A DNA stretch of 64,000 nt from Isurus oxyrinchus (Eukaryota). The notes beneath the pieces are model-generated. The model made no database searches. It was given only the letters and a program-made list of their open reading frames with translations, and was not told the DNA's origin. The translations under genes were made by a program, and so were the position numbers. Positions 61,732-62,007 of the stretch are shown in pieces. Position 1 is the first letter of the stretch; each line of letters begins with the position of its first letter. Where the stretch lies: contig JANJGN010000026.1 of assembly GCA_026770705.1 (NCBI GenBank), positions 35,216,001 through 35,280,000 of the forward strand, in the 5' to 3' direction.

Positions 61732-61740
61732 TCACTTGAT
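61732..61740 (-). CDS. IgH TM2 exon (IK-stop)
   Basis: tttcatcttcttttacag|ATC AAG TGA after a 139-bp intron; candidate AATAAA at 61315-61310 or 61279-61274. Confidence 0.8.
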   Translation of the reverse strand: MK

Positions 61741-61879
61741 CTGTAAAAGAAGATGAAATAATGAAGCAGGTTGTTTTGATCTAGGACATTTATGTTAGAG
61801 TTTTAATCAATGAAACATTGAGAGATTTTTTCAAACCGCTTCTGTCAGTTTGAAGTGTGAGTGGATTGAATCTTCTCAC

Positions 61880-62007
61880 CTTCGCCAGAGTGACGGCAGT
61901 GCTGTAGAAAATGCTCAGGAAGAACAGGATGATGAATGTGGAAGCGGTTGTCCAGATGTTGCCGTTATCATCCTCAGAGTCTTCAGTCCAGATACGGTCT
62001 GTGGAAT
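61880..62007 (-). CDS. Immunoglobulin heavy-chain transmembrane exon TM1 (IgM-like; IgNAR not excluded)
   Basis: Acceptor ccccgtag, then (D)STDRIWTEDSEDDNGNIWTTASTFIILFFLSIFYSTAVTLAK|gtgaga. Acidic spacer plus the WTTASTF..LF.LS..YS..VT membrane-Ig motif; open frame. Confidence 0.92.

Follow-up and report, generated by a model that had tools for sequence, protein, structure and literature searches.

The immunoglobulin transmembrane (TM) exons near the right edge of this stretch of Isurus oxyrinchus DNA are part of a complete IgM minicluster, which likely came to lie beside TCR V genes through the duplication of mixed IgM/TCR-V blocks within an antigen-receptor complex. The window, i.e., the whole stretch of 64,000 nucleotides that was analysed, spans scaffold C26:35216001-35280000, and positions past 64000 continue its numbering (Table 1). 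The exon set, the reading frames, the splice phases and the RSS spacers were read directly, as were an array of at least 34 TM sites, stops shared between gene copies and a fixed spacing between IgM and NARTCR genes.

The TM1 exon encodes an acidic spacer followed by a transmembrane helix that ends in TLAK (translation (D)STDRIWTEDSEDDNGNIWTTASTFIILFFLSIFYSTAVTLAK). Its product is identical to the membrane IgM of the cloudy catshark (P0069) at 38 of 42 residues, and 40 paralogues scored in the genome, among 224 candidates, are 93-100% identical to it. Consequently, TM1 is not a chance reading. The clean minus-strand exons of the initial annotation are confirmed as intact IgM membrane exons, with canonical splice sites and phases that fit.

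Together the two exons supply the tail AKIK, with the exon junction after AK. This tail was recovered in 29 of the 30 best-matching TM paralogues (a set biased toward the query), the remaining one reading VKIK, and a subfamily with the tail VKIE is also present in the genome. Only seven of 19 public proteins end in a TM region, and their tails are VKVK (four), VKIE (two) and MKVK (one). The tail had been set against the usual VKVK; the reading of AKIK was correct, but its peculiarity is ruled out by its being the local norm. AKIK amounts to a conservative, lineage-level change in the cytoplasmic tail of three residues (KIK in place of KVK), and nothing suggests to us that it would function differently. 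Note that a protein record labelled Aeromonas veronii (P0073) is 92% identical to shark IgM CH4, which host contamination likely explains.

Table 1. Features of the window and of its continuation beyond position 64000.
Feature	Position	Strand	Remarks
IgM TM1 exon, 128 nt	62007-61880	-	acceptor AG, donor GTGAGA; phase 1 in, phase 0 out
IgM TM2 exon, ATC AAG TGA	61740-61732	-	preceded by TTACAG; tail AK/IK
Two AATAAA candidate polyA signals, membrane form	61274..61315	-	sequence only
CH4-TM1 intron	62008..64000 (to window edge)	-	
CH4	65442-65051	-	secretory tail; internal TM donor after 65113
CH3	66468-66157	-	
CH2	67404-67090	-	
CH1	67916-67617	-	
JH	78511-78464	-	RSS spacer 23
D2	78920-78908	-	RSS spacers 12/12
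D1	79310-79297	-	RSS spacers 12/22
VH	80051-79747	-	RSS spacer 23
Leader of VH	80235-80178	-	
Truncated NAR-TCR V	47947..48153	+	promoter, leader, intron, 16 nt of V exon
NAR-TCR V pseudogene	35950..36410	+	in-frame TAA at 36184, degenerate RSS
NAR-TCR J remnant	38996..39045	+	splice donor AT, not GT; read from sequence
Supporting V-delta pseudogene	40440..40774	+	stops, most of exon missing
Field of 8 TCR V alpha/delta-like segments	10645..28949	both	

The remainder of the cluster, from leader and VH through D1, D2 and JH to CH1-CH4, lies 1-16 kb beyond the right edge, with open frames and canonical splice sites throughout, and VH, D1, D2 and JH are all gathered within 1.6 kb. An IgH cluster had been predicted at this place, convergent with the NAR-TCR cassette, and both its existence and its orientation are as foreseen, with a minus-strand cluster facing a plus-strand cassette. 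The frame from JH to TM2 yields a membrane form of 479 aa and the secreted J-C frame one of 454 aa, each with a single terminal stop. The J-to-TM2 product shares 77% identity with Triakis IgM; the figures for the horn shark membrane C region and for nurse shark IgM are 73% and 69-70%. Segment order and RSS spacers, the four Cmu exons, the secretory tail and the two TM exons are those of shark IgM miniclusters. Segments are unjoined and four CH exons are present, unlike in IgM1gj, in which VDJ is germline-joined and one C domain is missing. The TM exons of the window belong to a canonical IgM minicluster and not to IgM1gj. Going by the known biology of shark IgM, such a minicluster would rearrange within itself in B cells, its transcripts then being processed alternatively, either with the secretory tail in CH4 or by splicing of the internal CH4 donor to TM1 and TM2. 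The TM1-TM2-spliced form would be the heavy chain of the B-cell receptor.

Transcript data provide a line of evidence at the level of the family. They consist of contigs from four probable RNA runs of two samples (their RNA status is a guess), aligned to a compact paralogue at 80% likeness. The contigs contain V-to-J joints with junctional letters and a J end that runs into first letters identical to those of the CH1 of this cluster. Furthermore, TM1 continues into ATCAAGTGA (IK-stop) in all four runs, and LAK precedes TM2 in one of them. No VH stretch was found in runs recorded as RNA, and neither J-delta nor C-delta appeared among the loose contig ends listed, which speaks neither for nor against chimeric transcripts. 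The transcripts support an AKIK-tailed membrane IgM as a family and are not assignable to this copy.

The weak points of the cluster are two nonamers, that of VH and that on the 5' side of D2. The VH nonamer, ACTAGATCA, carries four mismatches to the consensus, and its frequency among 30 VH copies is three, compared to 20 for ACAAGAACA (four of these being offset by two bases in the parse), five for ACAAAAACA and two for others. Since ACTAGATCA is both rarer and weaker than ACAAGAACA, the VH of this cluster may rearrange poorly. The next IgM cluster, at 233.5-251.4 kb on the minus strand (L017-L019) and 172 kb away, has a family-norm VH nonamer and a shorter CH2. A reading that we consider unlikely, while granting it some weight, is that the cluster is a recent intact duplicate, rarely or never rearranged, and an incipient pseudogene among pseudogene neighbours. 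The nonamer itself speaks for it (three of 30 copies, against 25 with ACAAGAACA or ACAAAAACA), as do the several TM copies that are 99% identical, and hence young, and the state of the surroundings, in which just 25 of 99 V-like matches in 464 kb surrounding the locus, one of them inside the window, pass a crude filter of open core plus RSS. Every exon, every splice site and the signals of D1 and JH are nevertheless intact, and the heptamer and spacer of VH equal the family norm.

The neighbours of the cluster within the window are in a far poorer state. The initial annotation had counted about 14 kb from the TM exons to NAR-TCR/TCR V segments; the distance is right (13.6 kb), but what lies there is only the leader stub of a truncated NAR-TCR V. 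Homology of this stub to intact NAR-TCR cassettes stops at 48153, a rearrangement breakpoint, and from 50.5 kb on the sequence is similar to what follows the next IgM cluster on its 3' side. Between 41 and 61.7 kb, neither HMM nor tblastn recovered any V exon, and the closest remnants of V-type exons, at 21 and 25 kb from the TM exons, are both broken. The cassette at 36-41 kb does not qualify as functional, given its V stop, its AT splice donor in J and its broken supporting V, and no RSS of its V, D or J was found within four mismatches. The supporting V-delta pseudogene leads into a 62-bp tandem repeat of its own 23-RSS, of which four copies are visible. The repeat unit comprises heptamer, spacer, nonamer and flank; it is shared by several NAR-TCR cassettes, the window copy occupying 40526-40774 and others lying at 130622-130800 (L007) and at about -38200 to -37950 (L117). 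Window 15-47 kb has a copy at C26:35.69-35.72 Mb (95-99%) that runs on into a full-length NAR V, and no IgM was found in the 45 kb examined beyond it. From this copy, with its full NAR V and without IgM, we infer a rearrangement that brought the stub beside IgM. The 14-kb proximity would then be the product of an event that cut the NAR-TCR cassette and joined the remaining stub to the IgM 3' flank.

The naming of these V segments deserves a comment. The NARTCR identity rests on an intact neighbouring NAR V, which is 80-81% identical to white shark models labelled NARTCR in table S1 of PMC12227049. The TCR alpha/delta label of the other segments is based on 23-RSS, motifs and context; a PDB search with TCR V returned a mixture of TCR alpha/delta and antibody matches that did not separate the two, the best single-stretch matches being TCR delta/alpha. 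In the field of TCR V segments, the only one to pass the filter of open core plus RSS is that at 16595-16909 (+). It belongs to a family (16595-16909, -69374 and -116799) with open frames and near-perfect 23-RSS, in which the first Cys and the core Trp are absent from all three filter-passing copies and the sequence reads HYSYS or NYSYS, then LQLY.

The wider scaffold places this local picture in a long array. At least 34 IgM-type TM1 sites (18 plus, 16 minus) are spread over about 11 Mb of C26 (29.3-40.0 Mb), with a median spacing of 241 kb. The same span holds 23 NARTCR V genes, defined as exact pattern matches, and 10 of these lie head-to-head with IgM, 60-76 kb upstream of TM. Shuffling gave a null mean of 0.56 and reached 10/23 in 0 of 10000 trials, a count that is somewhat flattering because the band was picked after the distances were known. 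In 20 of the 23 cases the closest IgM lies on the opposite strand (3/10000 shuffles). Totals over six scaffolds, leaving out the 16 NARTCR V matches of C242, are 20/49 in the band and 44/49 on the opposite strand, counts that are not independent since unplaced scaffolds may include haplotigs. The remaining 13 of the 23 C26 matches have no fixed spacing to IgM TM, and no Ig or TCR match above 60 bits was found in C26 34.58-34.78 Mb. The genome has the stop of the window's NAR V at four further places; its distance from TM is 25.5 kb in the window and 25.6-25.7 kb in the two copies on scaffold C152.

Fixed spacing and shared stops are read here as the duplication of mixed IgM/TCR-V blocks, and IgM and TCR V genes likely multiplied jointly. 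The copying of such blocks along the shark antigen-receptor complex would have put the cluster among TCR V genes. A broader proposal is advanced tentatively, and we lean slightly away from it: in this lineage the amplification unit of IgM may be not the minicluster but a hybrid block (an IgM cluster and a NAR-TCR cassette in head-to-head orientation, with TCR V segments added), so that IgM loci and the pool of TCR-delta/NAR-TCR V genes expand and decay together, with a D-J-C-delta module free of C-alpha then serving as cis target for dozens of IgM VH. If true, the multiplication of blocks would explain why TCR V genes occur between IgH clusters and would tie together the sizes of both repertoires.

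Some members of the array have lost their constant domains. Three IgM copies without CH exons, at C26 32.313, 34.568 and 37.547 Mb (L077, L081/L162 and L085), retain an unjoined VH with 23-RSS, a germline-joined DJ with 12-RSS, and TM1/TM2 with the tail VKIE. All have a Trp-to-Cys replacement in FR2, and one has a stop in V. The CH exons were lost in an 18-kb deletion, of which an undeleted relative exists at C152:1162.6-1181.7 kb. A processed retrocopy was considered for the spacing of only 1.3 kb between VH and TM on C26 and was ruled out because introns are kept, which makes the spacing the result of deletion. In run X2, one contig reads across the deletion junction and cover begins near the promoter, and an assembly error is therefore unlikely. 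Since the phases of J and TM1 match, a VH-TM protein would be possible; no J-to-TM1 splice of these copies was found among the joints listed. On the scaffold that carries C-alpha, an IgM cluster at C242:44.8-63.3 kb (L172-L174) has a VH that appears germline-joined to D segments and ends in a 12-RSS.

Two C-delta genes were found, one on C26 and one on the unplaced C242, identical at 86 of 101 aa. Their TAILV-D-J-C-delta modules (C26:29.87-29.96 Mb and C242:540-645 kb) are about 88-93% alike in DNA, and divergence at both levels rules out alleles. Gene models of Mustelus likewise include two C-delta types, identical at 80 of 98 positions. Behind the C242 module come 57 J segments with FGxG and the only C-alpha TM exon found; C242 also carries IgM and its 16 NARTCR V matches. 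All 16, at C242:15-549 kb, are on the strand opposite to C-delta and would join it by inversion. In the C26 module (29.90 Mb, minus), the exons are open, D-delta carries 12/23 signals and each of three J has FGxG and a GT donor, and no J-like segment was found in the 139.6 kb 3' of it. IgH clusters, TCR V, NARTCR and C-delta, all features of the elasmobranch antigen receptor complex (AgRC), occur together on C26.

This arrangement bears on the VH-TCR-delta chimeras of sharks, for which the initial annotation had seen a cis route in the adjacency of IgM and TCR V, together with support for Ig-TCR linkage. Linkage holds. Adjacency gives no route, since a chimera needs D, J and C-delta, and the nearest of these lie 5.37 Mb away on the scaffold. 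The D-delta at C26:29928766-783 has a 5' 12-RSS and is on the same strand as this VH, 5,366,964 bp from it as assembled; with the 23-RSS of VH, a deletional join on one chromosome would obey the 12/23 rule, again as assembled. It is improbable that the cluster acts as a working cis donor of such chimeras in thymocytes by a deletion of about 5.4 Mb. Its VH is open with a 23 spacer, and the C26 module on the same strand offers open C-delta exons and three J segments with FGxG and GT donors. In sharks, V segments of IgM and IgW commonly rearrange to TCR-delta (PMC12227049), and thymocytes rearrange IgH genes (PMC2435157). Set against this are the distance itself, an interval only partly checked for gaps and orientation, the degenerate nonamer of this VH and the presence of nearer donors. 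Each D-delta has a TAILV-like V about 5 kb from it, and the 184 kb that separate the C26 D-delta from an IgM VH with 23-RSS contain no N; these V segments are better placed donors than the cluster of the window. The TM exons themselves would in any case stay outside the chimeras. Proximity within the complex has been argued to support trans-rearrangement (Flajnik et al. 2025 Sci Adv, PMC12227049). Multiplication in blocks, if true, would also make the cis-versus-trans question testable, since the use of each VH could be compared with how far it lies from either C-delta module and how it is oriented to it.

The placement of the cluster among TCR V genes presupposes a sound assembly. N is absent from 42 kb to 264 kb, including 200 kb to the right of the window. 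Window 17.4-135 kb has a collinear counterpart on scaffold C152 (0.6-120 kb), mostly 96-98.7% identical, and a single 17.8-kb alignment of this collinear copy (96-99%) crosses 46.9-64.6 kb with the same junction, which argues against a mis-join. Because near-identical TM copies number more than two in the genome, some of them at least must be paralogues and not alleles. That the IgM-TCR V adjacency reflects a scaffold mis-join, or that the TM exons are orphans, both named beforehand as refuting findings, is extremely improbable: duplicates of 98-99% abound in the region and could be mis-assembled, the sister copy at C26:35.69-35.72 Mb departs from the window exactly at 48.15 kb and a broken orphan TM-like exon does exist at 166.4-166.5 kb, but a complete cluster stands upstream of the TM exons, the sequence is free of N, C152 repeats the junction and the IgM-TCR V arrangement recurs in the white shark (table S1 of PMC12227049). 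The orphan TM1-like exon (L011, 166424-166546, minus) is 56% identical, contains a stop and lies amid TCR V segments, with no CH match beside it.

The nurse shark TCR alpha/delta locus reportedly contains IgH V segments and TAILV (Deiss et al. in 2019), and the NAR-TCR cassette is said to have been described by Criscitiello et al. in 2006. Isurus resembles the nurse shark in having Ig-type V in cis with D, J and C-delta as chimera donors, but the cluster studied here is megabases from any C-delta, and the TAILV-like V genes are beside each D-delta and not at the window locus. A NAR-TCR cassette consists of a NAR-type V, D and J followed by a supporting V-delta with 23-RSS (PMC12227049, PMC6795676); in contrast, one cassette of the window is a pseudogene and the second a leader stub. 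The nurse shark IgM miniloci share the layout VH-D1-D2-JH-Cmu (Malecek et al. 2008, PMC2435157). Compared to that account, the JH-CH1 intron is longer (10.5 kb versus 6.3-6.8 kb), the tail is AKIK and clusters are many more than the roughly 15 of the nurse shark. Close linkage of Ig and TCR in the elephant shark was read as ancestral (Venkatesh et al. 2014, PMC3964593), and the passage concerned contains no repeated-block architecture.

The closest parallel is the AgRC, in which IgM clusters are interleaved with NARTCR and TCR V (table S1 of PMC12227049). Isurus shares with it the linkage of IgM miniclusters to TCR alpha/delta and the TCR-type V genes between IgH clusters. On white shark chromosome 27, about nine IgM models lie amid NARTCR and TCR V at 8.2-17.1 Mb, and two pairs are head-to-head at about 39-42 kb while others are not (PMC12227049). 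The Ig-TCR linkage that had been offered as an insight is real, but it is not new, such interleaving being already published in PMC12227049, and in this respect our finding restates the published IgM/TCR V arrangement in one more shark. The fixed IgM-NARTCR unit, the second C-delta without J-alpha and the C-less IgM are not described in the parts of PMC12227049 considered here, and a literature search, most subscription papers excepted, turned up neither the fixed unit nor C-less IgM. Within the reach of these searches, all three are apparently unreported. Overall, the cluster proves to be an ordinary IgM minicluster within a complex that was already known, the NAR-TCR pieces near it are dead and a chimera route is possible; with at least 34 TM sites, the Isurus array is larger than that in the white shark AgRC listing (table S1).
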